IMG/VR virus record: IMGVR_UViG_3300042691_040811
Reading direction: 5' to 3' (one strand)
Length of the DNA stretch: 64,000 bases
DNA from: a virus
Lineage: Duplodnaviria > Heunggongvirae > Uroviricota > Caudoviricetes
Position numbers and translations under genes: made by a program. Position 1 is the stretch's first letter. Each line of letters opens with the position of its first letter. The notes under the pieces were generated by a model that had not been told where the DNA came from, ran no database searches, and worked only from the letters and a program-made list of their open reading frames with translations. This document shows positions 1,107 through 37,402 of this stretch, piece by piece.

Positions 1107-1576
1107 TGCCGCTATGCGCTACTTAGGCAATTTTACCCAGGAGGTCTACCTTACTAGACAGGAGAGTTGGCCCTAGCACTATCATGCACAGCTTTGATAC
1201 CGATGATAGGGACCATAACGAGTAGATAAGCCAAAAAACAAACAAGGACGATGTTTTCCATCGCCAAATGCACTACTCTAACCATGATAAGAAGGGGGGA
1301 GGCTTAATTAGGCTTACCCCCTTAATGACCGCTAAACCTGTTAAAAATGCCCGAATGTGTTGACACTGGGACATTGCTTAGGTATTATTACTTACCTTGC
1401 TCATGCACAATCATTATGCCTATTAAGGGGGCCACAACAAGTAAAGCCCCCATGAATCCGACAACCATAAGGTTTTGCATCACAAAATGCACCAATTTTA
1501 CAACCATCTTCCCCTAAGAGATTTAACTACAAGGCAAACTTACCCTCTTACTATTGTACAAAAGTTTTGAAATTTT

Positions 1577-2167
1577 TCAAAAATAGAGATAATCTCTCCA
1601 CTCCTCTACTTCCGAGGTGGAAATAGTTACGGAAATACGATTGTAGGGTATCTTAGGTTTGCTAACCAGAGTTGTCCCCGTTGCTCTAATTCTTTCCTCA
1701 AGCATCCCTACTTGAAAGCTATTCCACGAGAATGGCAAGGGGGCGATGTTAGTTGTTTCTTTGGAGAAAATTCTTTTTAGAGCTAAGGCCCACTCCTCTG
1801 GTGTCCTGTTATCTTTTGAATTATTACAGTCCAGGCAACTTGTGGACAAATTGGTCCATGTATCCTCCCCTCCCCGTGATTTGGGTATGATGTGATCCAC
1901 TGTGAGCCTGTCCCCTTTATATCCGCAATATTGGCAAGTGTGTTTATCCCGCTTGAGGATGAGGTTACGGGTAGGCTTGCTAGACAACATGCGTGGCTGA
2001 GGTACCTTAACGTACTCCCTAAGACGAATCGTCCTCTGAGAGATTACATGTGCTTTCCCTTTAAAGACTAATATTGTGGCTCTTTTCCACCCCATCAGGT
2101 GCAAAGGCTCGTATGTAGCATTTAGTAGTAGTACAGTAGACCCTACCTTAACAGGTACTTTATCCAT
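1577..2167 (-). CDS. HNH endonuclease
   Basis: CQYCGYKGDRLTVDHIIPKSRGGEDTWTNLSTSCLDCNNSK = HNH motif (C-x2-C ... DHIIP ... N ... C-x2-C-N). Confidence 0.8.
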   Translation of the reverse strand: MDKVPVKVGSTVLLLNATYEPLHLMGWKRATILVFKGKAHVISQRTIRLREYVKVPQPRMLSSKPTRNLILKRDKHTCQYCGYKGDRLTVDHIIPKSRGGEDTWTNLSTSCLDCNNSKDNRTPEEWALALKRIFSKETTNIAPLPFSWNSFQVGMLEERIRATGTTLVSKPKIPYNRISVTISTSEVEEWRDYLYF

Positions 2168-2252: not shown

Positions 2253-3743
2253 TTAAGAAGCAAGGAGGCGATTACGAATCGTGCCTAAACCGTCCTCATT
2301 GAGGACAAGGCCATTCATAAACACGGTTTTCAACTCTCCGAGGCTCTCCTGATCCCTAGTTTGCTGTTCATGGAGAACAAAATCGTCCCCTTGACGTTCC
2401 ACCCTAAGGAGCCCCTTAGCGGATTTCTTAACTCCACTATCTGTAATGGGATCTTTCATAACCTCAACGGGTTGTCCGTTGATTTGTGCCCAAGTGGTTT
2501 TCATGGCGATACCAAATGTATCACGGGTGTGGTACTGGTAGGTGTAGGAGCCGACGCCGAAAACAACGTTGCCACTAGCCCACCCTTGTTCAGCCATTGT
2601 CTGAAGGATGTCTTGGGCACGGGACAACGTAATGGAGTCCCCGTAAATAAGGCCAACACGGGGGTGCAATTCCTTGTAGCCTCTATCATTGGTGGAACCT
2701 CCGAAAAGTTCCCAAAGAAGTTGCAGGGAGCCCTTATGAGCGGGACTGCCGGGTTCCGCCTCAGGGTCACCGCAGATGATCTTTTTAGGGTTTCCGGAAT
2801 CGGGCCGGTATACCACCTTAGCCAGGCCAAGAGCGTCCGGTTGGCGATTAAGAATGGTGTCCTTAAGCTGAGCAGAGAGGTCAGTCAGAACCTTCCAGTA
2901 ATCCCAGGTGTCGCTAACAATGCTTACGATGCCCTTGGGGTAAACCTCAGAGATAAGGCGCCGATACGTCTCAACCTCAGTATCCTTCCCCCCAGCGCAC
3001 ATCACACTATGTTCAGTGGCAGGTACACCCCCGCCAATAAACTCATTGGAGCAATCGTAGTAATCCTCCAAAAAGTCGATTGCCGGAATGTTATCCGTAC
3101 CTTTGAAGCTGAACAGGTGACCAATACCGTGGGAGGCCGAATCATGCACCCCGCTAACGCCCCTCAGAGAGAAGTCGTGAGCCTGAAAATCCACGAAAGC
3201 CCTGGGGGTCCCTGTCAAATCCGCATAACGGTCCAGCAAACGCCTAAACTCGTAGGCAATCGTCGCATTGTTTACCCCCTTCCATAGCTCTGCCGACAAA
3301 GCACTTTCCACATAATTAGTAACCCAGTAAAATTGGGGCATTGTGTTTTCAATCGTCAGGAAGGGTACCCTGAGATTGACACGGGAGCCTTCTGGCAGGG
3401 CTTTGATGCGCAAGGGCAGGTAGCCCAAATCATGCAACTCAGCAATGTGTTCAATGCCTACGGCACCTTCCCCCAGAGAAGCATCCATACGCCTCTTATA
3501 CTTCCTGATAGCAACCTCTTTAGAGATCTGAAAGAAAGATTCTTGCCACAAGTCACGCAAAAACCACTTCAACGTCCCATTAACCCCTGCAACTACAACT
3601 TTGTGATCAAAGTCAGGGAGCATGTTGGCAAGGCGGTCCGACCTTGCAGTGACGTTCGAGTAGACAAACTCGGTGCCTTCAGGGTATTGGCGATAGTGCC
3701 CAGTCTTGTAAAAGTCGGTGGCGTGGGGGGCAAACAGTTTCAT
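2253..3743 (-). CDS. nicotinamide phosphoribosyltransferase-like protein (NadV / Namat-like)
   Basis: Long NAPRTase-family protein. N-terminal TDFYKTGH matches the NAMPT TDSYKxxH start. Start chosen at Met34 (cat at 3741-3743) so it does not overlap upstream gene. Confidence 0.85.
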   Translation of the reverse strand: MKLFAPHATDFYKTGHYRQYPEGTEFVYSNVTARSDRLANMLPDFDHKVVVAGVNGTLKWFLRDLWQESFFQISKEVAIRKYKRRMDASLGEGAVGIEHIAELHDLGYLPLRIKALPEGSRVNLRVPFLTIENTMPQFYWVTNYVESALSAELWKGVNNATIAYEFRRLLDRYADLTGTPRAFVDFQAHDFSLRGVSGVHDSASHGIGHLFSFKGTDNIPAIDFLEDYYDCSNEFIGGGVPATEHSVMCAGGKDTEVETYRRLISEVYPKGIVSIVSDTWDYWKVLTDLSAQLKDTILNRQPDALGLAKVVYRPDSGNPKKIICGDPEAEPGSPAHKGSLQLLWELFGGSTNDRGYKELHPRVGLIYGDSITLSRAQDILQTMAEQGWASGNVVFGVGSYTYQYHTRDTFGIAMKTTWAQINGQPVEVMKDPITDSGVKKSAKGLLRVERQGDDFVLHEQQTRDQESLGELKTVFMNGLVLNEDGLGTIRNRLLAS

Positions 3744-3772
3744 TTTTCTAAGGTGTTTATGCAGGGGGGCAA

Positions 3773-4723
3773 TTAGTTGGTGAGGGAGAGGGGCGGAGGA
3801 AGAACCTGGACAATAGGCACAAGAGGGGGAACCTCGTGGCAACCAACTGTATACGACTCCTCTGTTGGAAACTTAATCCCAGGAAAGAGATTGGGGGTTA
3901 GGATACGGTTAATCAGGAGAGACCCGTTTTCGTTAAAAACGTTGAAGCCTTTAGAGAAGATGCCATGGGTGACGTACAGAACGACTTCTTCGGCACCGCA
4001 ATTGCGCAGCACCTTGGCAAGTTCAATGAACGTCCTCCCTCCATCGCAAATGTCATCCACAATAAGCACCTTGTTGCCTGACAAATCTGGCTCGTCACCA
4101 TTCTTGTCCTTGACAAGGGTGCCAATGATAGAGCCATCATTGGAGTCCCGTTTTTTCTTACCATAGACGACGGTTTTACATCCAAGTGTGGAAGCAACGG
4201 CATTAGCCCTATCCACTGCACCAGCATCAGGGGATGCTACTACGTAAGAAGCATCCACGGAATCCCCAAACTTTTTGATAAGGGCATTTGCGCCGATGTT
4301 CAGAAAACTTATCCCTGCCCCTCTAAAGGCATCGTGGGCCTTTTTACTATGGACATCCCACGTAATAACTCTGCCTTTGGATTTAAAAGATTGCTGAGCA
4401 GCGAGAAGAGAAACAAAAGCCTCTAATGAGTTGGCTTCGCCGGGGTAGCAAACCCTGTCCTGACGGGAATAAGGGAGATACGGGAGAAAAACCGTTACAA
4501 ATCCGCTAAACCCTGAAAACTTCTCAGCTGCGTTAACGATGAGAGCAATTTCCAGGATGTCTTGACTGTCAGGGTAGCGAGACTCGATAATTAACCTTTC
4601 GCAACCTATGAGATCAGGGAGGCGAACTTGCACCTCCCCAGCCGAGAACAGAAACGTTTTCTTTTCTAGAGGTTCGGGGACGTAAAGGTTTTCCGCCCGG
4701 ATGCCGTAGAGGTTGACCGCCAT
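3773..4723 (-). CDS. ribose-phosphate pyrophosphokinase-like protein (Prs / Adps-like)
   Basis: PRPP synthetase signatures: VVASPDAGAVDRA, KVLIVDDICDGGRT (PRPP-binding loop), VTHGIFS. Start at internal Met (4723) because a conserved promoter element sits at 4745-4780. Confidence 0.85.
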   Translation of the reverse strand: MAVNLYGIRAENLYVPEPLEKKTFLFSAGEVQVRLPDLIGCERLIIESRYPDSQDILEIALIVNAAEKFSGFSGFVTVFLPYLPYSRQDRVCYPGEANSLEAFVSLLAAQQSFKSKGRVITWDVHSKKAHDAFRGAGISFLNIGANALIKKFGDSVDASYVVASPDAGAVDRANAVASTLGCKTVVYGKKKRDSNDGSIIGTLVKDKNGDEPDLSGNKVLIVDDICDGGRTFIELAKVLRNCGAEEVVLYVTHGIFSKGFNVFNENGSLLINRILTPNLFPGIKFPTEESYTVGCHEVPPLVPIVQVLPPPLSLTN

Positions 4724-4744: not shown

Positions 4745-4780
4745 CCACTGTAGCACTGCTAAGGGTCTTGTCAACCCTTA
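4745..4780 (-). promoter_or_regulatory. conserved phage-type promoter element (family copy)
   Basis: cactgtagcac...agggtcttgtcaaccc: same -10/-35 module as the recurrent attgtagcacc...ggttgNcaacc element. Confidence 0.5.
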
Positions 4781-4804: not shown

Positions 4805-5074
4805 TTAAATCACGCCGTTTTTCCAGGGCCGCAACCTGTCCAGCTGACGTTGCATTTCGCAAAACCTCACAAAGTGATGCGCATCACGCATCCAGATAGG
4901 GTCATCAACATCTGTACCTGTGGGTGGTTCTCTGTCGGTGATTTTCCAGTATTCTCCCCAAGTCATAGTGGCATCTGCTACGCCATAGGCAGACTCAGCC
5001 AAAGAGCAACATACTGCCTTGACCTCACCCATGGTGAAACCCACAGCCCTAGCCCTTTCCTCAAGACTTCTCAT
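4805..5074 (-). CDS. hypothetical protein
   Basis: 89-aa minus-strand ORF in co-directional array. Confidence 0.35.
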   Translation of the reverse strand: MRSLEERARAVGFTMGEVKAVCCSLAESAYGVADATMTWGEYWKITDREPPTGTDVDDPIWMRDAHHFVRFCEMQRQLDRLRPWKNGVI

Positions 5075-5176: not shown

Positions 5177-5398
5177 TCATTGATCTTCGGTCGTAGATGT
5201 GGAGGGCTTAACTCCAGCTTTGAGGAGGAGGGAAGCAATTACGTTGGAAACGGGTTCTTTCAACTCGGGGAATGCCGTAATCAGGTAGAGAAAGACGCAG
5301 ATAAGGGAAATTAGGAAGTTGGGGCTGAGGGCCGCAACGACGAAAAAAGAAGAAATTTTAATCTGTTCGCTCACAGATTGGTTGTTTTCGTTCGACAT
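5177..5398 (-). CDS. small membrane protein (two hydrophobic helices; holin-like topology)
   Basis: 73 aa with hydrophobic stretches SSFFVVAALSPNFLISLICVFLYLITAF; lies next to cell-wall enzyme genes. Confidence 0.4.
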   Translation of the reverse strand: MSNENNQSVSEQIKISSFFVVAALSPNFLISLICVFLYLITAFPELKEPVSNVIASLLLKAGVKPSTSTTEDQ

Positions 5399-5462
5399 TT
5401 TGCTTTTATAGTTGTGTGTAATGGGGAGGGGGCTGCCCTTTTAGAAACAACCCCCGAAGCAA

Positions 5463-6977
5463 TCAGAAGCGGAATGTGGTTTGGACTAAGGCCCCGAAAG
5501 TATCAAGGTTCTTATTAACTTCCCCCATCGGCGCACTGAGGTAGAACACCGCAGGAGTCACGGAGATGTTATCCGTAACTTGGAACTTGTAGTAGGCCTC
5601 AAAGGCGTATTGGCCATCATTGGCACTGTTGCCGTTAATAGAAGTGATGAAAGTGGGCTGACCAAATGCCGCTCCGAGCGCATTGCCTTTTTGGAAAGCA
5701 TCTTGCCAAACCAGCCCCGTATACCACGATTGGGAAGCGGCACTGCCACCGGTTTGATACCCGACTCTATTATAGCCCCATCCTGCCGAAATCGAAGGGA
5801 TCAGCCCGGCTTGCAAGGGTTGCCAGTAACCAGCCAAAGAGAACGAATTGGATTGGCCGCCTGTAAACGAATTAGGCAAGGTTGCTGAAAGGAAATTGGT
5901 GCCCGCTACGGCAACATCATAGTTGGAATAGGTGTAGGCCCCCGTTAGATTCCAGTTTTGCCTACCATAAGAGATCTGGACAGTAGAGGAAGCACCGGAG
6001 TTACCATTAAAAATACCACCTTCTGCGGAGTTGCCTTGATCGCCATTGGCGGCGACATAAGCACCCCCCAAACTAAAACCACCACTATGATACCAAAGAC
6101 CGGCCCCACTTCCCAAAACTTGCGTATAGGTGCCGGGAGCCCCCGCATACTGAAAAACTTGCAAGATGCGGTCTGCCGTATAAACTGATGGCCACACTGG
6201 CAGCGCATCGTCTTGACGGACCTTAGGGCCGAAGACTGCCGTGAAGTTCTCACCAATCGGGAACTTGTAGAACAAACGGTTAATAGTTACGGAGTCGTTG
6301 CCATTCGTATCATTTTCTTGGAATCCAGCAGAGAGCTGGGTGAGAGGGGTGGGGTAAGCTCCGAAACCGCTATTAACGAAGTTGCCAGCCCTTAGCTGAG
6401 TGCGCAGTAGATCCTTGCCCGTAAAGGAGGTGTCAAAATTTAGCTTAACGTCGTAGTTAAACGATACGGCTTCGTCCAGATTGTAGTTGTCCTTAGTGTT
6501 GCCGCCATAGGACAACCCTCCGAGAACCCATGTCGCCTCACCACGCAACTTCGTCGTTGTAGAGAATTGAGTGGCTTCTAGTTGTCCAACCCGGCCTTCC
6601 AACCCATCAACCCTACCTTTAAGGGTTGCCAATTCAACCGCAAATTCATCCATGAGCTTGCTAAGCTCGTCCGTAACCTCAGTCACACGATCAAGGCAAG
6701 CATTGAGCAGAGCGGCAGCTTCGTAACGGGTCATGGCGTTACCGCCACGGAAGGTAGAATCTGGATAACCAGCAACACACCCGTAACGCTCCACAAGATT
6801 GCTAAGGGCTTGATAGGCCCAGTCTGTTGGGCGCACATCTGAGAACTGCGCTACGCTGGTAACTTGCCCTTGGGAGGAATATTGATTGACGGCGTTAAGG
6901 TTAAGGTCAGCGGCACTTGCCGGGGATACCAACCCCAGGGCAATAGCACCAATACCTGCAAAATTTCTAATTTTCAT
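5463..6977 (-). CDS. SLH-domain outer-membrane porin (OprB-like, cyanobacterial type)
   Basis: Signal peptide MKIRNFAGIGAIALGLVSPASA. SLH motif DVRPTDWAYQALSNLVERYGCVAGYPDSTFRGGNAMTRYEAAALL. Coiled-coil linker, Gly/Asn-rich beta-barrel body, C-terminal ...TTFRF (terminal Phe). Confidence 0.85.
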   Translation of the reverse strand: MKIRNFAGIGAIALGLVSPASAADLNLNAVNQYSSQGQVTSVAQFSDVRPTDWAYQALSNLVERYGCVAGYPDSTFRGGNAMTRYEAAALLNACLDRVTEVTDELSKLMDEFAVELATLKGRVDGLEGRVGQLEATQFSTTTKLRGEATWVLGGLSYGGNTKDNYNLDEAVSFNYDVKLNFDTSFTGKDLLRTQLRAGNFVNSGFGAYPTPLTQLSAGFQENDTNGNDSVTINRLFYKFPIGENFTAVFGPKVRQDDALPVWPSVYTADRILQVFQYAGAPGTYTQVLGSGAGLWYHSGGFSLGGAYVAANGDQGNSAEGGIFNGNSGASSTVQISYGRQNWNLTGAYTYSNYDVAVAGTNFLSATLPNSFTGGQSNSFSLAGYWQPLQAGLIPSISAGWGYNRVGYQTGGSAASQSWYTGLVWQDAFQKGNALGAAFGQPTFITSINGNSANDGQYAFEAYYKFQVTDNISVTPAVFYLSAPMGEVNKNLDTFGALVQTTFRF

Positions 6978-7074: not shown

Positions 7075-7149
7075 AGCGGGTGACCGGGCACGATCCGGCA
7101 ACCTTTTGCTTGGGAAGCAAATGCTCTACCAAAATTGAGCTACACCCGC
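7075..7149 (-). tRNA. tRNA-Gly(CCC)
   Basis: Minus-strand read gcgggtgtagctcaattttggtagagcatttgcttcccaagcaaaaggttgccggatcgtgcccggtcacccgct. Perfect 7-bp acceptor, anticodon loop ttCCCaa, 75 nt. Confidence 0.7.
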
Positions 7150-7192
7150 ATAATGGGGGAAGTTACTTCCCCCCGGATTCGACTAGAGCAGA

Positions 7193-7555
7193 TTAGATGC
7201 GAGTGATGCAAACATCTGCCACACCTGAGGCAATCATACCCAGCCGCTTGGCAGCAGTTTCTGACACGTCGATGATACGTCCACCATAATAGGGACCTCG
7301 ATCATTTACCCTGAGGTTAACAGAACGACCATTGCGCTGATTGGTTACCCTAACCCAGCTACCCAGGGGGAGATAGGGATGAGCAGCGGTCATAGTTCCT
7401 GGGCGGAAAACTTCCCCATTAGCAGTGAGGTTCCCGTAAAACCCAGGCCCATAGAAGCTGGCCTCACCGCACCTTGCCCAAGCGGGAGATGCCCCCAGGG
7501 CAACACTGCCGATGAAAGCAGCGACGACGAGGCGAAGGTTGTTTTTAGATGGCAT
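7193..7555 (-). CDS. RlpA-like double-psi beta-barrel protein (lytic transglycosylase-like), secreted
   Basis: Signal peptide. CGEASFYGPGFYGNLTANGEVFRPGTMTAAHPYLPLGSWVRVTN...VNDRGPY is the RlpA/DPBB signature. Confidence 0.8.
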   Translation of the reverse strand: MPSKNNLRLVVAAFIGSVALGASPAWARCGEASFYGPGFYGNLTANGEVFRPGTMTAAHPYLPLGSWVRVTNQRNGRSVNLRVNDRGPYYGGRIIDVSETAAKRLGMIASGVADVCITRI

Positions 7556-7604
7556 TGTTTAGAGAGAACTCAGCATCCGCTTGCCCCGTGGATTGAGGTA
7601 AGCG

Positions 7605-7665
7605 GCACCGCCTGAAGCTCAGGCCTCATCATTGTAGCACCTTGCTCTTAGGGTGTCAACTCCTA
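7605..7665 (-). promoter_or_regulatory. conserved promoter + 5'UTR hairpin
   Basis: gcctgaagctcaggc hairpin, cattgtagcaccttgc (-10 TGCTACAAT on minus), gtgtcaac -35. Confidence 0.6.
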
Positions 7666-7706
7666 GGGAGGAAAGGGGGGTGAGGAAACCACCCCCCCTA
7701 ATGCAA

Positions 7707-8336
7707 TTAGGAATCAGATTCCAGAGGAATCAGCCTACGTGCATAGTCATAGGCATAGGAAGTACGAGCCCCGTGAATACCCCACCCTAGCCAACTGTGG
7801 GCGTAAGCCATGTAACGCTCGATGGGTTTACCTGGGACACGCATCTTATCTTGGATACGCAACCATTGTGGCTCCACCAGAATGTAGTTGAGCTGGGTGT
7901 CTAAAGAGGATGGGTCACCTCCAATCCGTTTGGCAAAGTTGCCTAGTCCGTAGTAACGATCCGAGGATGTAAACTGGATTAGGCCAAAGCCACCGGCCTT
8001 ACACCTTTCATAAGTGGTACGAGCACCACCTTCACAGATGTTGGGGACGAATGTAGACTCTTGCTTGATGTTCCCCAAGATAGTTGCCAAGGCATTCTTA
8101 TCTGTGATGCCCTTATCCTGAAAGAAGTTCAAAGCAGTGAGTTCGTTGTTATCACAACCTTTGCAAGTGTAGCGTTTTTCCTTAGGTTGCTCCGCAGACG
8201 GCTCCCCCATAGTTGCGGGCTGAGCGATGTTGGTAGCAATGGTAACGGGAGCTGTTTCCGGCGGTTTAGGTAAAGAAGCGGAAACAGGAGCCGTAGCCAG
8301 AACGGAAGAGGCCACAAGTGTAGTGAGGCTAAGCAT
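7707..8336 (-). CDS. secreted SLT-domain lytic transglycosylase-like protein
   Basis: Signal peptide. KQESTFVP (catalytic E-S) followed by GGFGLIQFT (GLMQ-like), typical of family-1 lytic transglycosylases. Confidence 0.6.
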   Translation of the reverse strand: MLSLTTLVASSVLATAPVSASLPKPPETAPVTIATNIAQPATMGEPSAEQPKEKRYTCKGCDNNELTALNFFQDKGITDKNALATILGNIKQESTFVPNICEGGARTTYERCKAGGFGLIQFTSSDRYYGLGNFAKRIGGDPSSLDTQLNYILVEPQWLRIQDKMRVPGKPIERYMAYAHSWLGWGIHGARTSYAYDYARRLIPLESDS

Positions 8337-8584
8337 TAAAAAGAATTGAAATCAACATCCGTTTAGAGAAAGCGCACATCCCTTTTCTCAAAGGGCAATC
8401 TCCACGGCACAAGGAATTTAAGGGCGCAATATCAGGCCCCGAGAACCTTTCTGCAAAGCAGAACCCGCTCATAACAGGTTTTCCCTGGAAGGGAAACAGG
8501 CTCAAGGGTATTATAGCTTGTTTCCCTGTCTATTTACCGCTAAAATGATAAGTTTCTCTTATGGCTGAGATAAGTTGTTGTTAT

Positions 8585-8788
8585 CTAAGAAAAGTTGTCG
8601 TCAATTCTGTTCAGCCACAACCAATCCTTAGGATCTTTTGCCATGACAGCTTGGCTTTCAAACAACTGTCCGATCATTTCTTTTTCTTCTCCTTTAGCCA
8701 TGTGGTATAGTTTCCGGGCTGCCAAACACCGCTTTCTACTAAACTCATCCGTTTTCAAAATCTCTGAAGCTTTGTTAAATAGTTCCAT
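8585..8788 (-). CDS. small partner protein of LF-like metalloprotease (paralog of 10112..10315)
   Basis: MELFNKASEILKTDEFSRKRCLAARKLYHMAKGEEKEMIGQLFESQ... Starts 1 nt after the stop of the upstream gene (TGAcATG). Confidence 0.6.
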   Translation of the reverse strand: MELFNKASEILKTDEFSRKRCLAARKLYHMAKGEEKEMIGQLFESQAVMAKDPKDWLWLNRIDDNFS

Positions 8789-8789
8789 G

Positions 8790-16845: not shown

Positions 16846-19194
16846 TTAGTTGGAATAGCGAACCCAAGCAGGTTTGGAACTTTCCGTAATGGTTAAATTA
16901 CCTAAATTAACCTTTTGCAAAATAGCAATGATTTCGTCCCTTTGACTACCAGCGGTTTCTAAAACACCGTTATTATTTCTATCAAAATAAATAGTGGTGT
17001 TTGTAGATGTGTTTCTTGAAAAATACCTACCAGAGACAAATTGCAACTTGTCCACCAACCTGTTGAAATCTGTTATTAGCAAATAATCATTGGATCCTAC
17101 AACTGAGGAAACCCCATTATTGTAAAACACTCTGGGTGCCCCCTCCCTTAGCTGCCCTAACAGAAAAATATCCGCCCCACCTCTCCCAGTCACAGTGTCA
17201 ACTTGCCCCTTCCCCAGGGCTTGTGGAGTTATGCCAGAGGCAGGTACCCCAACCATAAAATTAGGGCTGTCATTCCCTGCGAGAGCATTATTAGATGTTG
17301 TACCCCAAAAGTAAGTATAACCTGTAGAGGTATCCGCTACGGTAACTTCTTTTGAGGCAATTTGAGTCGTCCTGCCAGAGTTGCTAAAAAGTTTGAAAAT
17401 TAATATCTCGGTTCCTTCCAGAGTATTATCATTAGCCACTGTGACTGTAACAGAACCTGAATTTGAGTTTATAGTGACGGAACCTTGCAAAGGCGCAGAA
17501 GAGATGTCGGTAGAGGATACTCCACTTATGAACCAGTACAACACTGTTCCATTATTTACGCCTGACGTACTAACTGAAAAAGTTAAAGAGGAACCTTCAT
17601 TTACGGTTGATGGGGCAATGATGGAGAATGTAGGTGCAGGCCCTCCAGAGTATCTAGTGGCCATTTCTACCAGCCCCGCCAATACATTGAGTCTGCCATT
17701 AGAAGCAACAACTCCGTTTAGAGATGGGGTGGGTGAAGCAGTGGTGAGTAGAACATTTCTTAAATCTCTACGATTTGCAGTAGGAAAAGAAGATAGGAAG
17801 GAGGCTAATGCTCCAGTGACGTGAGGGGTGGCCATAGAAGTACCACTAATAGATTGATAGTTCCCTGAAGGGAAAGTAGACATTATGCCTTCTCCAGGGG
17901 CTCCCAGGTCAACAGACGTAGAACCGTAGTTAGAAAACCCAGACAGACTACCGTTTGAGGACAATGAAGCCACAGAGGTGACAGCTTCCCACCCTGCCCC
18001 TGCCAAAGTGCTGTAATTTGCAGGGTAGAATGAGTAGTAATTGTTGTCTAGACCGCTGTTTCCCGCCGCTGCCAAAAAGTGATTATTTGCGTTTGCGCCA
18101 GCCACTATAGAGTTTAACAATAGCGTAGATAAACCGCCACCCCCCCAAGAGTTGTTAGTCCCTAAGAACATCGTAGGTGAGTTTGCATTAAAAGCAACAT
18201 CTTTGCTAAGGGTTTCAGCAGTGTAATAGTCGATGGCAGAGATTGCATCGCTAAGGTAACCTGATCCGCCAGAGTTTAGGAATTTAAGGGGCATGAGCTG
18301 AATTTTCCAATTCACCCCTACAACACCCGCCCCATTGCTCCCGATGGCCCCAATGGTGCCAGCCACATGAGTACCGTGATACTGGTCGTCTTTGGGGTCA
18401 TTATCATTATTAACAAAGTCCCACCCGATCAAATCGTCAACAAAACCGTTACCATCATTGTCCACCCCATTCTCCCATCTAACGTCATTTAGTAAGTCAC
18501 CAGCATCTATGCGCCCATTGGCGTTCACATCCGTTACGAATGCAGAGTTGGCAGGATCGTTGAGATCCCTAAAGGTTATTAAGCCGTCTCCGTCAACGTC
18601 CGTCAACGACCCATAGAAAGATAATGTTTTTATTTCCCCTTGATTGAGATAGATGTTTAGGTAGAGGTCGGGGTGTGTGTAGTCAATTCCAGTATCTACT
18701 ACACCCACCACAACCCTGGAGCTTCCAATGTGTCCTAAATTCCAGGCTTGCTCAGCTTGACTACCGAACTGATTAGTTGTGCCTGCGGGGCCTACCGTAG
18801 GAGTATCCCCCGAATACATCCCCCACAGACTACCAGAGGTATACAAAGGGTCGTTGCTCAACTCTACAGCCTTGTAGACAAAATTTGGCTCTACTGATAC
18901 CACCCCAGGGACACTCTTATAGGCAGTAATGGCATCGGCAGCACTAACATCAGAAGGCAAAGAAATAACTTCTACGAAACCTTTCTCCTTCGCCCTCATT
19001 AGAGAAGTTTGAAAGCTTTTAACTCTTTGACCCTTGAATTGTTTCAAGGTGGATGCCCCAGCATTAAAAGAGTTGGTATTTGACCACTTTACTACAATCT
19101 CATTTTTCCCTAACTCTTGAGATAAACAAGGTGTAATCTGTGCGACTAAGGAGATAAAGACAAAAAGTATTCCGAATTTTTTAAAAAATTCCAT
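16846..19194 (-). CDS. secreted subtilisin-like serine protease (S8) with C-terminal beta-rich extension
   Basis: Signal peptide. Catalytic triad motifs VGVVDTGIDYTHPDL (Asp), HGTHVAGTIGA (His), GTSMATPHVTGALA (Ser). Confidence 0.9.
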   Translation of the reverse strand: MEFFKKFGILFVFISLVAQITPCLSQELGKNEIVVKWSNTNSFNAGASTLKQFKGQRVKSFQTSLMRAKEKGFVEVISLPSDVSAADAITAYKSVPGVVSVEPNFVYKAVELSNDPLYTSGSLWGMYSGDTPTVGPAGTTNQFGSQAEQAWNLGHIGSSRVVVGVVDTGIDYTHPDLYLNIYLNQGEIKTLSFYGSLTDVDGDGLITFRDLNDPANSAFVTDVNANGRIDAGDLLNDVRWENGVDNDGNGFVDDLIGWDFVNNDNDPKDDQYHGTHVAGTIGAIGSNGAGVVGVNWKIQLMPLKFLNSGGSGYLSDAISAIDYYTAETLSKDVAFNANSPTMFLGTNNSWGGGGLSTLLLNSIVAGANANNHFLAAAGNSGLDNNYYSFYPANYSTLAGAGWEAVTSVASLSSNGSLSGFSNYGSTSVDLGAPGEGIMSTFPSGNYQSISGTSMATPHVTGALASFLSSFPTANRRDLRNVLLTTASPTPSLNGVVASNGRLNVLAGLVEMATRYSGGPAPTFSIIAPSTVNEGSSLTFSVSTSGVNNGTVLYWFISGVSSTDISSAPLQGSVTINSNSGSVTVTVANDNTLEGTEILIFKLFSNSGRTTQIASKEVTVADTSTGYTYFWGTTSNNALAGNDSPNFMVGVPASGITPQALGKGQVDTVTGRGGADIFLLGQLREGAPRVFYNNGVSSVVGSNDYLLITDFNRLVDKLQFVSGRYFSRNTSTNTTIYFDRNNNGVLETAGSQRDEIIAILQKVNLGNLTITESSKPAWVRYSN

Positions 19195-19222
19195 CTCTTC
19201 ATAAGGTGTGTTTCCTTAAGTT

Positions 19223-19483
19223 TTACCCGTCGTCCAAAGGTAGTCCTAATTCCTCCCTCAGTAACCTTGTGCTAATCTCTGCATTCTTGCTTGCTTCTTT
19301 CCAGGTTAGATAGTTAGCCCACGGGTATTTACTGTTCCACCTCATTTCGAATAGGAATCGCCTCCAGACTATAAACATCTTTTTATTAAAAATTTCCAAC
19401 AAGTCTGAGAGGTAAGGTTCTGTCAAGACAAGATAAAACAAAAGCCCGAGAGTAGAAGCCCAGGCCACATGGAGATAATTCAT
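19223..19483 (-). CDS. hypothetical protein
   Basis: 86-aa ORF between protease gene and downstream array. Confidence 0.3.
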   Translation of the reverse strand: MNYLHVAWASTLGLLFYLVLTEPYLSDLLEIFNKKMFIVWRRFLFEMRWNSKYPWANYLTWKEASKNAEISTRLLREELGLPLDDG

Positions 19484-19945
19484 TTTTTAACCTCAAAACT
19501 TACATAAAGCATTTTGTCACCTTTTCTAACCCCTTTCATCTCCGGGTGATCCTTAAACTTTGGATCCTTTCTGTATCCTTTACTTTCTGTTTTAACACAA
19601 AATCCTTGGTAGCCCAGTGGGATCACTATGCTTAAAGCAGTGAGGAGGATTAAAAAAGAGTCATTACCCATTTTTATCACCTTTAGGGCAAGGAAGACCT
19701 TAGCAACCAGATGGAATGGATGATACCAAATACAAAAAGCACCCCAATCACCCCACTAATCCACCCCACCCTAACCTCATGTTGCCTTATCTTCTCATCG
19801 ACCTTTTCATCAATCAGCCTTTCAATAAAACTAATGGAGTCTTTATTCATATAGGGAAAGGGGTTGTCTAACTTTACCCACTTTGCCAGTGTAGCAAAGC
19901 TCTCAAGTAAACGACCCGTTCTTAATACTTTTTTCTAGTTTGAAA

Positions 19946-20392
19946 TCAGCTCAGAGCGCCTTGGTAGTTGACGTAGAAAATCTCGTCAATGATGCCAAAG
20001 TCAATTGCCGACTGGATCATTTTCTCTGAGGCTGATCCGTTCTTCGGTCTCTCTGAGAAATAAACCGTGTACCAATGGTCAGGATTAACGGTTTTAAGCA
20101 AGATGCCATCGGCTATAGCCTTTTTAACGCTATCGGTCCTCTGGGCACCAGGCTTCTTTCTCTTTCCGGGCTTCCCTCCCTTAGCCTGAGCATACTTTCT
20201 CAGAGTTTTGACATGGCGGCCCTTACTATCAACAAGAGGGACATCTACGACAAAGTCCATTTCTATGCCACAGTCTGGGATGGGCAAATCCCTCGCAACG
20301 ACTGTAGATCCGTTATTTGAAACCTCGTATGTGATGGCAACATTTTCGTACTCTAAACCAATTTCCGTACAAGTTGCTTTTAAACTTTTCAT
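19946..20392 (-). CDS. hypothetical protein
   Basis: 148-aa ORF. Confidence 0.45.
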   Translation of the reverse strand: MKSLKATCTEIGLEYENVAITYEVSNNGSTVVARDLPIPDCGIEMDFVVDVPLVDSKGRHVKTLRKYAQAKGGKPGKRKKPGAQRTDSVKKAIADGILLKTVNPDHWYTVYFSERPKNGSASEKMIQSAIDFGIIDEIFYVNYQGALS

Positions 20393-20585
20393 TTTTTCAA
20401 AAAATTTACTACTTTTTTAATTTCAATACCGATAGAAACTGTCTAAGGAAAAATCTGCTTGCATTTCCTTAAACGTACATCTCTTATTATTAATTTTAAC
20501 CTTTTGAAGTTTTAATCCATCCGGCAACTCTTCCCACAATTTTACAGGTGGATAGGTTTTATCTAACATTGCGCTCTTGGGCAAC

Positions 20586-20612
20586 AAAAAAAAGGGAGGG
20601 GTTTGCTCCCTC
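20586..20612 (-). terminator. rho-independent terminator
   Basis: On minus strand agggaggg-agcaaac-ccctccct followed by T8, just downstream of gene 20696..21130. Confidence 0.6.
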
Positions 20613-20695
20613 CCTATGATAGTTTGCCCCTTGCATCTCCCTACTTAGGAAACGGAAAACTTCCTTAAGTTGACCCTTTTGCTAATAATCACTTT

Positions 20696-21130
20696 TTACT
20701 GATTGAAGGCAAAGAAATCAAATTGCAGCATCAGTGGGAAACTCACCGGGGTACAATCATGCTCACCGGCAAACATGTCGTTGGATTCGACGGGTTTTGC
20801 CCCTTCCGCCATAGAAAGTGTAAGGTGAGGCTGAGCGTTTCGGCACATTGCCCTAAGGTCTACTTCCGACAGATTGTCCACTGAGGCACTGGACGGAAGT
20901 TCAACTTTCAGGGCTTGGATTTTGCTGTTAAAGCAATTAGCAACGACTTGCACCTCTACCTGCTGACCGAGAAAGGACTCAATTTCGGGGGTAAGCTCCA
21001 CCCCAAACTGCAAAGTTACGTGGAAGTGCTTAGGCAGTTCGCCAAAAACAGGATTAACCCCATTAAGTCGAAGGTCGTCAGATAAGGAATTTTGATTGGG
21101 GGCAGAAAGCCAGAAAATACCTTTTGTCAT
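20696..21130 (-). CDS. 2H phosphoesterase superfamily protein (LigT/cyclic phosphodiesterase-like)
   Basis: Two H-x-T/S-x motifs: KHFHVTLQFG and QPHLTLSMAEG. Confidence 0.55.
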   Translation of the reverse strand: MTKGIFWLSAPNQNSLSDDLRLNGVNPVFGELPKHFHVTLQFGVELTPEIESFLGQQVEVQVVANCFNSKIQALKVELPSSASVDNLSEVDLRAMCRNAQPHLTLSMAEGAKPVESNDMFAGEHDCTPVSFPLMLQFDFFAFNQ

Positions 21131-21157
21131 TTTGCTCCGGAGGTTGTGTGTTAAGGG

Positions 21158-21373
21158 TCAAGCAGGGAGAACGGTTTCTTCCGTCAGCAAGCTAACGAAA
21201 AAGTCGAAGCTCTTACGGATGATGACGGGTTGGTTGAATGTCAGAGCGGCCTTAATAGCCGCATAACGAGCTTGAGCAAGGCTCTCAAAGGTTTCCCCGT
21301 CCACCATGAGGCCGTTTTGCAGTTCAAGATGAAACTCAGGTTGGGCCAGATCAGAAGTCATGGGAGGGGTCAC
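21158..21373 (-). CDS. hypothetical protein
   Basis: 71-aa ORF; degenerate copies of the conserved promoter upstream (21395-21470). Confidence 0.35.
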   Translation of the reverse strand: MTPPMTSDLAQPEFHLELQNGLMVDGETFESLAQARYAAIKAALTFNQPVIIRKSFDFFVSLLTEETVLPA

Positions 21374-21586
21374 AGGGGTATGGGGCGAGCTACCCCCTAA
21401 TTGTAACGGGACCTTGTGGGGGGATCAAGACCGTGGTTACTTATTGTAACACCTTGCCTAAGGTGCTGGGTCCTTACTGTCTGAGCCCTCTCGCCCGCCC
21501 ACACCTCGATCTCAATGCTCTCAAATGCGTATCACAATGAGAACGACATTCCTCCGCTCCAGAGAAACAAGACCTAAAGCACCCCG

Positions 21587-22138
21587 TTAATCCCCCTCAA
21601 AGTCATCCCTAAGAGCAGTGAGAACTTGGCCCAGCCAATTTGTCCCCCTCCAATTCTTGGGGTCACTCACCCCTTCGTCATTGCAACCAAGGCCAATACC
21701 CCATACAGTATCATAAGGAGATGCCTCTACCAGATACTGCCCCCTGGTGCCCATCAAGTAGTCATAGGCATCCTTATTTTGAGAAAACTTGTAGTAACAC
21801 CCCTCATAAACAATTTGACGAGCGTGCAAATCCCAGGTTTCCTTGTCAAACCCCTTAACTTCCCTACCCAGTGCTTTCTGGTCTCTCGGGTGCTTACTTT
21901 GGAGGATTTTTTCCGCTGTTTCAGGATCATTGAAAAGCAAAGCTTTTTTGTGCATCATGTACTGCTCAGAGCAACCATAATGAATACCCGTTCTGGGGTC
22001 AGTGAAAGGCGTATTTGACCAATTAGATAGGTACCCTGTGTAGAAGAAAAAATACTTGTCGTACTTTTTTAAAAAGTTTTGCTCTTTAAATTCCTTCATT
22101 TTGCCCCTATGGTTTAAACTGTAAAGTTCAGTAATCAA
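21587..22138 (-). CDS. NADAR (YbiA/DUF1768) domain protein
   Basis: FFFYTGYLSNWSNTPF ... YGCSEQYMMHKKALLF ... matches the YbiA-family F-x-F...LSNF...SxEHxFxxxKA pattern. Confidence 0.7.
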   Translation of the reverse strand: MITELYSLNHRGKMKEFKEQNFLKKYDKYFFFYTGYLSNWSNTPFTDPRTGIHYGCSEQYMMHKKALLFNDPETAEKILQSKHPRDQKALGREVKGFDKETWDLHARQIVYEGCYYKFSQNKDAYDYLMGTRGQYLVEASPYDTVWGIGLGCNDEGVSDPKNWRGTNWLGQVLTALRDDFEGD

Positions 22139-22562
22139 CCCTAACCTTTTTCCTCTTCTTCAGATTCCTGAAAACTTTGATTTGTCTGGGAGTATGGTGG
22201 ACAATTGGAGAGGAACACGTAAAGACTTTGTTTTTAGGGGTGTTTTCAGTATTGTCACTGGGCAAGTCTACAGAAGGCGAAAAATCTGTAGAAAAATCAC
22301 TATCTTCGTGAAGGTGCTCGTATGCAGGGTTCATTACCTTGTAAGGAAGATCCTTATAGGTGAAGTATACGATACCCCTACCCCTTTCATCATAGTAACC
22401 GAGCATGGAGCGGGCGGCGCTGGCGGCCTCCCAGGGAAGCTCGTCAGAGTAGCAGACCTGGAATCCAAGGTCAGCCATAGCCTGCCCCACCTCCGCCCTG
22501 AGGGCATCTTGCTGATTGGCGGCAGTGGTAGAGAGTCTGTAAGTTCTGGTATGAGGTCGCAT
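22128..22562 (-). CDS. hypothetical protein
   Basis: 144-aa ORF. Confidence 0.45.
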   Translation of the reverse strand: MRPHTRTYRLSTTAANQQDALRAEVGQAMADLGFQVCYSDELPWEAASAARSMLGYYDERGRGIVYFTYKDLPYKVMNPAYEHLHEDSDFSTDFSPSVDLPSDNTENTPKNKVFTCSSPIVHHTPRQIKVFRNLKKRKKVRVDY

Positions 22563-22649
22563 GGTGTTCTGGAAGAACGAAGTTATCTTAACACCCTCTC
22601 CCTATTTAAGGCAAGGCATCCGGTGCGGGTTGCCCCCCCTTGAGGGTTT

Positions 22650-22685
22650 CAGTCAGGGGCAAAAAAAAAGGGGGGGGTGCCCCCC
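22650..22685 (-). terminator. rho-independent terminator
   Basis: Minus strand: gggggg-gca-cccccc hairpin followed by T9; downstream of 22711..23109. Confidence 0.6.
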
Positions 22686-22710
22686 GGTTGACTTGCCAAC
22701 AACACCCCCA

Positions 22711-23109
22711 CTAGATAAGTTGAACAAGTTTCCCAAAAAGGTCATAGATCCCTTCAAACCCTAAAGATTGCGCTAGTTCCCAGGCAAGATCGAAAGCCTC
22801 AAACCTTTTAGGATTTTCCTTCACATTGTAATACTCAAAGAGGTCAACCCTAAACTCCTCAATAAGGGATGCTATTTCAGACCCCCTCTTTTTAAAGTAC
22901 ATTTCATACTTTTCCGTGTCCAGAACTATTTGAACTACGGCTTCAGGATAATTGCCATTGGGATGCAACTCTTGGATGAAGTCACGTTCATAGATACTTC
23001 GATGTCCTTCCCAGACAACTTTGCCCTTGTCATAAACGAAGACCTTTTCAAAATCTTTCTTGCTTAAAGGTGGAGTGGCCGGGCCGCTGTAGTATTCAAA
23101 TGGTTTCAT
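22711..23109 (-). CDS. hypothetical protein
   Basis: 132-aa ORF. Confidence 0.5.
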   Translation of the reverse strand: MKPFEYYSGPATPPLSKKDFEKVFVYDKGKVVWEGHRSIYERDFIQELHPNGNYPEAVVQIVLDTEKYEMYFKKRGSEIASLIEEFRVDLFEYYNVKENPKRFEAFDLAWELAQSLGFEGIYDLFGKLVQLI

Positions 23110-23114
23110 TCTGA

Positions 23115-23471
23115 TCAGGGTTTGGTTTTTTCTTTTTTGTCTTTGAGGAGTTTGCGCAGACGTTTAGCATCCTGCTCAATGAACTTAACGAGCTTCTCGG
23201 CAAATTCCGGGCAGCGCTCAATCAGTGCCTCAAATTCTTTGCTAAAGGGGTTAACCTCGGTAACACAATTACCCATGTGTACGTAAATGGCGTGGTCGTC
23301 AGCATGGCGTGCCCTCTGCACATGAACCAAGTTGCAATGGTGGCCCAGGCCAAAATCTTTTTCTTCCATGTCAAGGCACCCCTCGTAAACCTTTTGAGCA
23401 AACTGCTCAGGGTGCTTGAGGATTTGATCGCACCCGTCATTGTAGACAGTGAACGTTGTCAGATAACCCAT
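23115..23471 (-). CDS. hypothetical protein
   Basis: 118-aa ORF directly downstream of conserved promoter 23483-23595. Confidence 0.5.
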   Translation of the reverse strand: MGYLTTFTVYNDGCDQILKHPEQFAQKVYEGCLDMEEKDFGLGHHCNLVHVQRARHADDHAIYVHMGNCVTEVNPFSKEFEALIERCPEFAEKLVKFIEQDAKRLRKLLKDKKEKTKP

Positions 23472-23482
23472 GTTTCTTTAGC

Positions 23483-23595
23483 AGTGGCGGCCTCGGGCCG
23501 CCTTACACAGGTATTGTAACATCTTGCTCTCAGGGCTGTCAACCCTGAGATTTGAGTGCCGGGACAACCTTGCTCTCAGGGTTAGCAATAACCAA
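23483..23595 (-). promoter_or_regulatory. conserved promoter + 5'UTR hairpin + one upstream half-unit
   Basis: gtggcggcctcgggccgcc hairpin, gtattgtaac (-10), gctgtcaaccc (-35), then second unit caaccttgctctcagggttagcaat. Confidence 0.6.
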
Positions 23596-23613
23596 AACCC
23601 TTATAGAGGGACA

Positions 23614-23886
23614 TTAACTATCGTCAACCAGGCTTTCCCATAGGATTTTAGCCTTTTTGAGGGAGTCATTGGGCTTCGGCGGGTTGATCAGGGTTTCTGC
23701 CAAAAGGCATTGATCTTCTTCTGATAGAAGCAGGGTTTTGCCGTCAGGGGGAAGGGGGGCATCCATGTCAATGCACACCCCCTCAGTCAGCTCTTTGAGC
23801 CTTTTTGCCAAGTCTTCAGTTATAGGGATAAGGGCAGGATCCTCCCACCAGTCATTGCTTTCCAAATTTACTGCCCCCGGAGCCAT
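23614..23886 (-). CDS. hypothetical protein
   Basis: 90-aa ORF. Confidence 0.35.
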   Translation of the reverse strand: MAPGAVNLESNDWWEDPALIPITEDLAKRLKELTEGVCIDMDAPLPPDGKTLLLSEEDQCLLAETLINPPKPNDSLKKAKILWESLVDDS

Positions 23887-24088
23887 AGAAATTTTCTAAA
23901 TTTTCCAAAGACTTCTCAGGGGAAACCTTAGCTTGCTCAACTTGTTCAATCACTTTCATTGCCTCGGCCAATTCCTTTTCACCCTCAATTGCATTGCCAT
24001 TGTGGAAATGGGCGTTGGCAGCCGATACCCTGCGGGAGAGGGCGATGAATGCTTGAGAAAAGTCAAGGCCAGTTTGATAGTAAAACAT
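23852..24088 (-). CDS. hypothetical protein
   Basis: 78-aa ORF. Confidence 0.35.
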   Translation of the reverse strand: MFYYQTGLDFSQAFIALSRRVSAANAHFHNGNAIEGEKELAEAMKVIEQVEQAKVSPEKSLENLENFYGSGGSKFGKQ

Positions 24089-24114
24089 TGCTTTAATGGT
24101 TTAGGTGGATGGGT

Positions 24115-24243
24115 CAATTTTGACGGTTAGAACTATCCTTAACAGGGACATCAAACCCCATTTTACTTTCCATGTAGAAAAGGAAGGAGAGGAGAAATGC
24201 CACGAGCGTTAGCGTTGCCATTTTGCCAAAGCGTTTCCCTGCC
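24115..24243 (-). CDS. small hydrophobic peptide (about 42 aa)
   Basis: Own translation MAGKRFGKMATLTLVAFLLSFLFYMESKMGFDVPVKDSSNRQN; immediately downstream of promoter copy 24243-24290. Below the ORF-track length cutoff. Confidence 0.35.
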
Positions 24244-24290: not shown

Positions 24291-24296
24291 CCGATG

Positions 24297-25787: not shown

Positions 25788-25823
25788 ACTACATTATGCT
25801 ATAATGTAGATTTTACCCCTTTG

Positions 25824-37400: not shown

Positions 37401-37402
37401 GG

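Follow-up and report, generated by a model that had tools for sequence, protein, structure and literature searches.

NAD+ reconstitution pathway 1 (NARP1) is a two-gene phage pathway that has been described since 2024, is structurally characterized, and is present in ~4% of sequenced phages (Osterman et al.). Its operon in phage Bas63 drew attention through its Pfam annotation, the first gene having PF14572 and the second both PF18127 and PF04095, and deletion of NARP1 sensitizes the phages Bas63 and FADO to SIR2-HerA and DSR2 (DSR2 in the case of FADO) (Osterman et al.). The first enzyme, ADP-ribose pyrophosphate synthetase (Adps), when taken from SPbetaL1, turns ADP-ribose (ADPR) plus ATP into ADPR pyrophosphate (ADPR-PP) and yields no product in a control reaction for Prs activity, and the second, nicotinamide ADP-ribose transferase (Namat), prefers ADPR-PP over phosphoribosyl pyrophosphate (PRPP). 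A further pathway, NARP2, uses a nicotinamide phosphoribosyltransferase (Nampt) of the type found in phage KVP40; this Nampt clade occurs in phages without an Adps homolog, and no phage was found to carry both pathways (Osterman et al.). A third, NARP3, consists of a PnuC-like transporter and a NadR-like bifunctional enzyme. Here we describe a gene pair from a virus of the Caudoviricetes (IMG/VR record IMGVR_UViG_3300042691_040811), of which a stretch of 64,000 nt, hereafter the window, was analyzed. We put the probability that its two adjacent genes at positions 3773..4723 and 2253..3743 form a phage NARP1 module at roughly 80%, judging from sequence comparison. The gene order, families, motifs, phylogenetic placement, conservation, and NMN adenylyltransferase (NMNAT) absence were computed here, and we infer the substrates, the products, and the counter-defense role of the pair from characterized homologs.

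If the pair works as those homologs do, an NAD+-depleting defense of the TIR, SIR2, SEFIR, or DSR type would first cleave NAD+ to ADPR and nicotinamide. Adps would then pyrophosphorylate ADPR at the 1'' hydroxyl of its distal ribose, taking the beta,gamma-pyrophosphate from ATP and releasing ADPR-PP and AMP, and Namat would swap the pyrophosphate of ADPR-PP for nicotinamide to give NAD+ directly, with no nicotinamide mononucleotide (NMN) intermediate and no use for an NMNAT. Because ADPR is the substrate of Adps, such a pathway would act only after the defense has cleaved NAD+.

The Adps-like gene (3773..4723, minus strand) encodes a predicted ADPR pyrophosphate synthetase of 316 aa with a fold like that of PRPP synthetase (PRPS), running from an ATG at 4723 to a stop at 3773. 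The Namat-like gene (2253..3743, minus strand) encodes a predicted nicotinamide ADP-ribose transferase of 496 aa with a NAMPT fold, running from an ATG at 3743 to a stop at 2253. A spacer of 29 nt (3744..3772, minus strand) separates the stop codon of Adps from the start codon of Namat, and this short distance, together with the common strand, fits co-transcription of the two. An initial annotation made from the sequence alone had reported this arrangement, and the open reading frames (ORFs), Pfam, and PHROG searches agree with it: the Adps-like protein matches PF13793, PF00156, and PF14572, as well as PHROG 619 (E 2e-60), and the Namat-like protein matches PF18127 and PF04095, as well as PHROG 448 (E 5e-186), family assignments that are far beyond chance. 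The start codon of the Adps-like gene agrees with the lengths of close homologs (313-316 aa), and its relatives at 89%, 77%, 68%, and lower identity are of equal length. Against the closest relative (locus L087 in our numbering of related loci), dN/dS is 0.12 for the Adps-like gene and 0.087 for the Namat-like gene. Given ORFs at these positions, relatives of equal length, and low dN/dS, both genes are real and under purifying selection, with Adps having evolved much faster than Namat across the lineage.

Both proteins also belong to families with well-known classical members, and the pair could be read as a classical salvage route in which a true PRPP synthetase feeds a NadV/Nampt that makes NMN, with the NMNAT located in the rest of the genome or in the host, in the manner of NARP2 and KVP40. 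For the NAMPT-fold protein, the comparison is with SPbetaL1 Namat, which holds adenine in a "selectivity clamp" that includes a loop giving a stacking Arg, Lys, or Tyr, and the clamp helix has the consensus GS-X-Phi-X-Phi-X-Phi-TRD, whose third and seventh positions are aromatic and stack against the NAD+ adenine (PMC12774641). In the double mutant R40A/F392G, ADPR-PP-dependent NAD+ synthesis is lost while NMN synthesis is kept, Arg40 being the residue that stacks on adenine (PMC12774641). The corresponding helix in the window is GSYTYQYHTRD (G398-D408; 2520..2552, minus strand), which fits the consensus and places Y400 and Y404 at positions 3 and 7. Our reference sequences were those of ICP1 and FADO and, for SPbetaL1 Namat, the one in the PDB; phage Nampts linked to NadM took the place of KVP40. 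The motif is GSFTYQYNTRD in SPbetaL1 and FADO and GSYTYQYVTRD in ICP1; at the same site, GGGLLQxxxRD is found in six Nampts that we took as NARP2-type. Four of them (from DSS3P8, V1VFA-S, and the cyanophages B23 and BUCT-ZZ01) are encoded beside NadM/NMNAT, and the other two (from Miller and RSL1) were chosen by similarity. Overall, a strict form of the clamp motif was present in 103 of 118 Adps-linked homologs vs. none of the six NARP2-type Nampts. The clamp loop tells the same way: the codon at 3633..3635 (minus strand) specifies Arg37, which is the equivalent of SPbetaL1 Namat Arg40 in two independent alignments, although the window's loop exceeds its SPbetaL1 counterpart by five residues and is similar to the loop of an Acinetobacter homolog.

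Similarity across the whole protein points in the same direction. The best-matching solved structure is 9w5x/9w5w (502 bits vs. 218 for mammalian NAMPT), which agrees in numbering and residues with the SPbetaL1 Namat described in PMC12774641. The window's protein is 49% identical to SPbetaL1, 46% to FADO, and 44% to ICP1 Namat, as opposed to 28-32% to the six NARP2-type Nampts, and a neighbor-joining tree splits Namats from NARP2-type Nampts at 100% bootstrap, with the window's protein among the Namats. The catalytic core is kept (D10, Y12, F191, R194, D217, R313, D315, G368, and D369), including an Arg equivalent to R306 and, as His245 in ATEHSVMC, the phosphorylatable His. Clamp motif, Arg37, identity, and tree thus favor a protein of the Namat type. 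The NCBIfam model NF006629, which the Namat-like protein passes (536 vs. a cut-off of 405), was dropped as a means of telling Namat from Nampt, as the validated Namats and the NARP2-type Nampts without exception score above its cut-off. PDB entry 9ke8 (391 bits, motif GAQTYQRNTRD) was set aside, having no close match in the phage database. We would also like to note that the Namats of three relatives, L088 (10963-13392), L017, and L020, are 809-815 aa long and carry a 314-aa intein-like insertion. This insertion starts with Cys, ends in ...VSGN, is followed by Ser, and lies inside the catalytic RPD|SG (R313-D315 and S316 in the window).

For the Adps-like protein, we examined the features reported for the ICP1 Adps structures (PMC13586617). 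In ICP1, the loop DDICDGAASF (D212-F221) binds the phosphates of ATP, and its C215-S220 segment constitutes a remodeled pyrophosphate (PP) loop (PMC13586617). The donor loop of the window's protein, DDICDGGRTF (D223-F232; 4028..4057, minus strand), aligns with it, and the first six residues are identical between the two. The canonical PRPS donor loop is instead DDM(I/V)DT(G/A)GT(L/V/I), the invariant Thr of which is replaced by Gly228 in the window; Phe232 fills the "lid" position, where all five Adps-type sequences have a Phe. The ICP1 catalytic hairpin Lys185, whose replacement in K185A abolishes both ADPR-PP formation and DSR2 rescue (PMC13586617), has its alignment equivalent in Lys190 (codon at 4154..4156, minus strand). 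The surroundings of this residue, K-x-R-D-x-x-x-G-x-I, are common to ICP1, Barba19A, and the Acinetobacter prsA_2 (in FADO Adps, Asn replaces the Asp), in contrast to the canonical DKRR...N. Also kept are F26, R87, H125, D166, D223, D224, and D227.

Termini and overall architecture differ from PRPS as well. Adps is defined as being without the C-terminal alpha11-alpha12 filament/regulatory module of PRPS (PMC13586617), and the window's protein has neither an N-terminal helix nor alpha11-alpha12 (no counterpart of LAEAIRRI...S.LF appears in the alignment); its RF loop is without the PRPS P-I-T/S-A-K segment. An AlphaFold2 model (mean confidence score pLDDT 92.4) has a PRPS-like fold in which the last helix spans residues 230-241 and only short strands follow residue 254. 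A Foldseek search of this model against the PDB returned canonical PRPS only (TM 0.58-0.67), the ICP1 Adps structures being outside the searched set, and Foldseek was consequently dropped as a discriminator between Adps and PRPS.

Profile searches gave scores to set beside these residues. The Adps-like protein misses the cut-offs of the equivalog PRPS models (115 vs. 297 bits for PRK01259 and 117 vs. 296 for PRK00934, with other models similar) and passes only the broad TIGR01251 (140 bits vs. a cut-off of 113). True PRPS score 409-423 bits with TIGR01251 (E. coli Prs, 423) and 462-533 with PRK01259 (E. coli Prs, 533), and the validated Adps of ICP1 and FADO score 96-98 (ICP1, 98) and 64-80 (ICP1, 80), respectively. 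With a canonical PRPS profile that we built, the window's protein scores 99 bits, the ICP1 and FADO Adps 60-65, and PRPS 530-540; a phage Adps profile made without the window's lineage gives it 240 bits vs. 132-139 for PRPS. A neighbor-joining tree of 113 representatives (200 bootstraps) sets six canonical PRPS apart from the remaining 107 sequences with 100% bootstrap, and in it the window's protein is intermixed with the ICP1 and FADO Adps. Taken together, donor loop, Lys190, termini, profiles, and tree favor an enzyme of the Adps type. The initial annotation had proposed phylogenetic placement as a check, naming clustering with housekeeping cyanobacterial Prs and NadV as the contrary outcome; when the placement was carried out, both proteins fell on the validated Adps or Namat side of 100%-bootstrap splits, apart from canonical Prs and from the NMNAT-linked cyanophage Nampts.

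The adenine-binding site of the Adps-like protein departs in part from that of ICP1. There, the adenine of ADPR is held by F18', R87, and F92 (PMC13586617); the window's protein conserves F26 and R87 at the corresponding positions, and the position of the adenine-stacking Phe92 is occupied by Cys92 (codon at 4448..4450, minus strand). FADO Adps, which is validated in vivo, is also without F92, so this residue is not universal in Adps. Within the window's own Adps subfamily, Cys92 is invariant in the motif RQDRVCxPGE, and Arg230 of the donor loop, equivalent to Ala219 in ICP1, is nearly invariant. It seems rather doubtful, but worth raising, that this Cys92/Arg230 subfamily might bind its acceptor differently or take another ADPR derivative.

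The two genes travel together. We collected loci with an Adps relative, comprising 80 viral loci from IMG/VR and 80 loci from bacterial genomes, with 87 related phage loci overall. A Namat homolog lies on the same strand in 78 of the 80 IMG/VR loci, the order Adps then Namat being kept in 77 of the 80, and the distance between the two, measured by the ends of high-scoring segment pairs, is at most 300 nt in 59 of the 78. This pairing matches the published adjacency for the Adps clade, in which 97% of genes have a Namat homolog in the immediate vicinity (Osterman et al.). It also bears on the possibility that the first gene provides a large replicating phage with PRPP from which to make purines and pyrimidines, with the NAMPT-like gene as an unrelated neighbor. 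Large phages often carry genes of nucleotide metabolism, and the window contains a tyrosyl-tRNA synthetase gene, a DNA ligase gene, and 14 tRNA genes. We nevertheless consider an auxiliary metabolic role of this kind very unlikely: the genes are almost inseparable and in fixed order in the viral loci, the loop that would bind the phosphate of ribose-5-phosphate is remodeled as in ICP1 Adps, and the SPbetaL1 Adps had no measurable product in the Prs-activity control.

A NARP1 module would work without an NMNAT, and the initial annotation had remarked that none was visible in the 64 kb. Our searches bear this out: phmmer searches and a profile built from four NadM proteins of phages, run against all six-frame ORFs of at least 40 aa in the window, gave only E > 1, and Pfam scans of ~98 window ORFs contained no match to PF01467, PF00293, PF04973, or PF01661. 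No NadM/NMNAT was found within +/-10 kb in any of the 87 phage loci. The initial annotation had also named an NMNAT just outside the window as a finding that would speak for the classical route; taking relatives as a proxy for the sequence beyond the window's left edge, we found no NMNAT in the ~8-10 kb downstream of the pair. As no NMNAT, Nudix, NadR, PnuC, or Macro gene was found in the 64-kb window (for the Macro domain PF01661, neither in the operon nor in the other ORFs scanned, and for the PnuC and NadR types of NARP3, in the same Pfam scans), the pair is best described as a plain two-gene NARP1 and not as NARP1-AP, NARP2, or NARP3.

Several observations nevertheless weigh against assigning the pair to NARP1. 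Pairwise identity does not separate the alternatives for the first protein (28.9% to ICP1 Adps vs. 28.8% to E. coli Prs), and was for this reason dropped as a classifier in favor of profiles, motifs, and trees. A profile made from the two validated Adps alone gives the window's protein only 90 bits vs. 55-67 for PRPS. The protein also lies nearer to canonical PRPS than the validated Adps do, scoring 99 vs. 60-65 bits with our canonical profile and 140 vs. 98 with TIGR01251, i.e., above the 113-bit cut-off. Two ICP1 ligand-contact residues are changed, F92 to Cys92 and F223 to Glu234. The trees are neighbor-joining trees with only six canonical PRPS or six NARP2-type Nampts as outgroups, and the branching within the Adps clade is poorly resolved. 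In vitro, Namats can still make NMN from PRPP and nicotinamide (PMC12774641), so that some NMN synthesis would be possible. Finally, the NMNAT search covers 64 kb of a source contig of 117.8 kb, ~54 kb of which lies outside. This is a single JGI contig (117,840 bp) that encodes an exact copy of the Adps-like protein; the best IMG/VR match is 40% identical, and a metagenome scan with the ORF at the window's left end yielded no relative.

In favor of the classical salvage route are the NMN-forming activity of Namats, the ~54 kb outside the window, the database names of both proteins, with TIGR01251 and NF006629 scores above cut-off, and the precedent of two known cyanophages, B23 and BUCT-ZZ01, which rely on NadM together with Nampt. 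We still regard that route as quite unlikely for the window. The NadM-linked Nampts have GGGLLQxxxRD at the clamp site, are only 28-32% identical to the window's protein, and are separated from it at 100% bootstrap, and a name derived from NF006629 is uninformative when Namats and NARP2-type Nampts alike pass the model. The Prs-like protein fails the equivalog PRPS models and is without both the Thr of DT(G/A)GT and the C-terminal module, neither the 64 kb nor the 10 kb to either side of the 87 phage loci yielded an NMNAT, and NARP1 and NARP2 are reported to be mutually exclusive in phages (Osterman et al.). The proposal of the initial annotation, that a PRPS-like enzyme using ADPR is paired with a NAMPT-like enzyme, is thus supported by the clamp, the donor loop, the C-terminus, the trees, the gene order, and the lack of an NMNAT in the window, all of which are in keeping with the NARP1 type.

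Bacterial genomes carry the same two genes in a different setting. Among the 80 bacterial loci, 68 have a Namat homolog and 67 have a gene for an NrtR-like protein, in which a Nudix domain is joined to a winged helix-turn-helix (Nudix-wHTH). The latter gene was found in none of the 87 phage loci and not in the window (E > 1). Since the NrtR-like gene is present in 67 of the 80 bacterial loci and absent from the phage loci, the contexts of phage and bacterial Adps-Namat pairs are distinct, and that of the window is of the phage type. Matches to NadM-like proteins were obtained by tblastn in 54 of the 80 bacterial loci, and these probably reflect the Nudix domain that the NrtR-like gene encodes. 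NrtR regulators respond to ADPR, and in the bacterial loci (L093-L172) a sensor of ADPR would thereby sit next to a NAD+ pathway that consumes it.

One might accordingly ask whether the window's pair is a copy of a bacterial chromosomal prs-nadV operon under an NrtR-type regulator, serving housekeeping recycling of NAD+. The Namat that comes closest to the window's in the phage database (62% identity) does lie on an Acinetobacter chromosomal contig beside a Nudix-wHTH gene, and the bacterial loci carry Namat homologs and NrtR-like genes at the frequencies given above. Neither the window nor any of the 87 phage loci has an NrtR-like or Nudix gene. The neighbors of the pair are of phage type (a tail lysozyme, a DPBB protein, homing endonucleases, and tRNAs; in relatives also a T4-type RNA ligase and a terminase), and Adps relatives from bacteria reach no more than 42% identity, vs. 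89% on metagenomic phage-like contigs. A bacterial origin of this kind is extremely unlikely, and a phage NARP1 module remains our reading. The 62%-identical match, labeled "Acinetobacter phage", was also considered as a classical nadV-nadM cluster and rejected, as the contig is bacterial; the gene annotated there as an NMNAT/ADPR pyrophosphatase encodes a 255-aa Nudix-wHTH (NrtR-like) protein without an adenylyltransferase domain. Records labeled "Acinetobacter phage MD-2021a" and "Microcystis phage MaAM05" (loci L003 [CAKLQF020000015.1], L173, and L174 [MW495066.1]) look like bacterial chromosome contigs, on which fepC, an AraC regulator, dinB, trpG, and a housekeeping prs are found.

Directly downstream of Namat lies an HNH endonuclease gene (1577..2167, minus strand; 196 aa; PF01844, E 6e-17). 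The HNH gene follows Namat in all close relatives (including L004, L087, L088, and L090), and is also found in the IMG/VR loci L007-L017, L019, and L020, where its identity to the window's is 65-71% and that of Adps is 38-45%. Across the relatives, identity to the window is 65-90% for HNH, 67-91% for Namat, and 38-89% for Adps, with an HNH dN/dS of 0.05; where Adps has drifted to 38-68%, HNH is still 65-73% identical. This conservation is unusually tight for a free-standing homing endonuclease. The HNH gene was absent from the other ~65 viral loci that bear NARP1. We therefore describe it as a conserved neighbor whose membership of the pathway is putative. That NARP1 in this lineage comprises three genes, with the HNH protein either as part of the counter-defense or as the vehicle that moves the cassette, is an unlikely extension of this reading.

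The Namat/Adps module is probably co-transcribed with this downstream HNH gene, and we infer the boundaries of such a unit from consensus matches. A promoter-like site, TTGACA-16-TACAGT (4747..4774, minus strand), lies 24 nt upstream of the Adps start and has 10 of 12 consensus matches with a TG extension. A terminator-like site after the porin gene described below (5450..5470, minus strand) and a terminator-like hairpin downstream of the HNH gene (1247..1265, minus strand) are likewise consensus matches only. Together, these three would frame an Adps-Namat-HNH unit, which is weak evidence, given that the region contains six promoter-like sites vs. 4.8 expected from shuffles, i.e., no excess, and that its terminator-like counts are not above chance by shuffled sequence. 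Just upstream of Adps are two small minus-strand ORFs (4805..5074, 89 aa; 5177..5398, 73 aa). Neither has a Pfam match, and the 89-aa ORF, the one of the two compared with PHROGs, has no match there either. ORFs of the same sizes are found at these positions in L087.

The wider context is that of a phage. All long ORFs and all 14 tRNA genes (7075..47790) are on the minus strand of the window, as are a tyrosyl-tRNA synthetase gene (38018..39172) and an IS605 OrfB/TnpB-type transposase gene (12300..13445). Many tRNAs, a tyrosyl-tRNA synthetase, and IS605 OrfB/TnpB are typical features of jumbo phages. Other genes in the window encode a phage tail lysozyme, a DPBB lytic transglycosylase, two proteases, homing endonucleases, a DNA methylase, and an ATP-dependent DNA ligase. 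Relatives share the gene order lysozyme, DPBB, (porin), Adps, Namat, HNH, and RNA ligase on contigs of up to 268 kb; their RNA ligase is of the T4 type, and one relative contig has a terminase fragment just upstream. The porin gene (5463..6977, minus strand) encodes a 504-aa protein with SLH and OprB domains, the N-terminus of which is signal-like. Matches were found in 32 plasmid records, where all listed organisms and matches are cyanobacterial. As it is present in the window and L090 and absent from L087 and L088, the porin gene is a variable accessory gene. On the strength of the phage gene neighbors and the cyanobacterial-type porin, the element is a large tRNA-rich phage and its host is probably a cyanobacterium, the host assignment being drawn from this one gene. 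Two further genes may be relevant to ADPR metabolism, a NADAR-domain protein (21587..22138, minus strand; Pfam E 1e-49) and a 2H/cyclic-phosphodiesterase-like protein (20696..21130, minus strand; tRNA_lig_CPD, E 9e-7). A link of these genes to NARP1 is conceivable, as ADPR-PP decays to ADPR cyclic phosphate. The relative L090 encodes an ADP-ribosylglycohydrolase (2187-3035).

The main gain from this analysis is a correct annotation. Pipelines label the two genes "ribose-phosphate pyrophosphokinase" and "nicotinate phosphoribosyltransferase", and the sequence rules of the 2026 structure papers allow them to be read as Adps and Namat. The pair would be a diverged addition to known NARP1, extending it to a lineage of large, tRNA-rich, uncultivated phages with a cyanobacterial-type porin and contigs of up to 268-279 kb, which as a host range is only a modest extension. 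Our literature search found no publication linking cyanophages with NARP1, and the named cyanophages examined (B23 and BUCT-ZZ01) carry the NMNAT-dependent NARP2 layout. If the host assignment is true, NAD+-depleting defenses would be a significant pressure on cyanobacterial viruses, and the pair would provide a diverged Adps and Namat for comparative enzymology, with an Adps ~29% identical to the solved ICP1 enzyme.

Compared with canonical enzymes such as E. coli Prs, human NAMPT, and Xanthomonas Nampt, the window pair has the same folds and core catalytic residues. It differs from them in scoring 99-140 bits where canonical PRPS score 410-540, in its changed loops and termini, and in having an aromatic clamp in place of GGGLLQ. 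NARP2, as in Vibrio phage KVP40 and, by layout, in Synechococcus phage B23, BUCT-ZZ01, and Roseobacter phage DSS3P8, is alike in its NAD+ product, its NAMPT fold, and its predicted counter-depletion role. Unlike the window pair, NARP2 starts from PRPP, proceeds via NMN, needs an NMNAT, has no Prs-like gene, and has a Nampt with GGGLLQxxxRD. The bacterial prs-nadV pairs with an NrtR-like gene (in Acinetobacter, Flavobacterium, Acetobacteraceae, and some cyanobacteria) and the active NARP1 homolog of Paenibacillus foliorum belong to the same two subfamilies as the window pair. For instance, the Acinetobacter prsA_2 and NadV are 37-40% and 61-62% identical to the window's proteins, respectively, and have DDICDGG.TF, the equivalent of Cys92, and GSFTYNYLTRD. 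In contrast, these operons are chromosomal and have a regulator in 67 of the 80 loci, whereas the window and the 87 phage loci are without it.

Closer still are the NARP1 systems themselves. NARP1-AP of Vibrio phage Gary, which adds a Macro-domain ADPR-1''-phosphate phosphatase (Adpp), has the same core of Adps and Namat, and Rheinheimera phage Barba19A, whose Namat is 51% identical to the window's, has a NARP1-AP-like macro-Prs-Nampt layout. Without Adpp, the window pair would not be expected to cope with aRES-type defenses, which make ADPR-1''-phosphate. From the NARP1 of Bas63, SPbetaL1, FADO, and ICP1 (NrsA/NrsB), the pair differs in that its Adps is only 28-29% identical to those of ICP1 and FADO, has Cys for ICP1 Phe92 and Arg230 for Ala219, and is 316 aa long vs. 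~280, with a proline-rich, strand-only tail. It is also followed by an HNH gene, and it comes from a phage that probably infects a cyanobacterium rather than an enterobacterium, Bacillus, or Vibrio. Nevertheless, the window pair remains similar to these systems in being a two-gene, same-strand unit of Adps then Namat, with the Pfam domains of the Bas63 operon and no NMNAT. It likewise has their clamp motif, the clamp-loop Arg, the donor loop DDICDG..TF, the catalytic Lys, and an Adps that ends without the C-terminal helices of PRPS.

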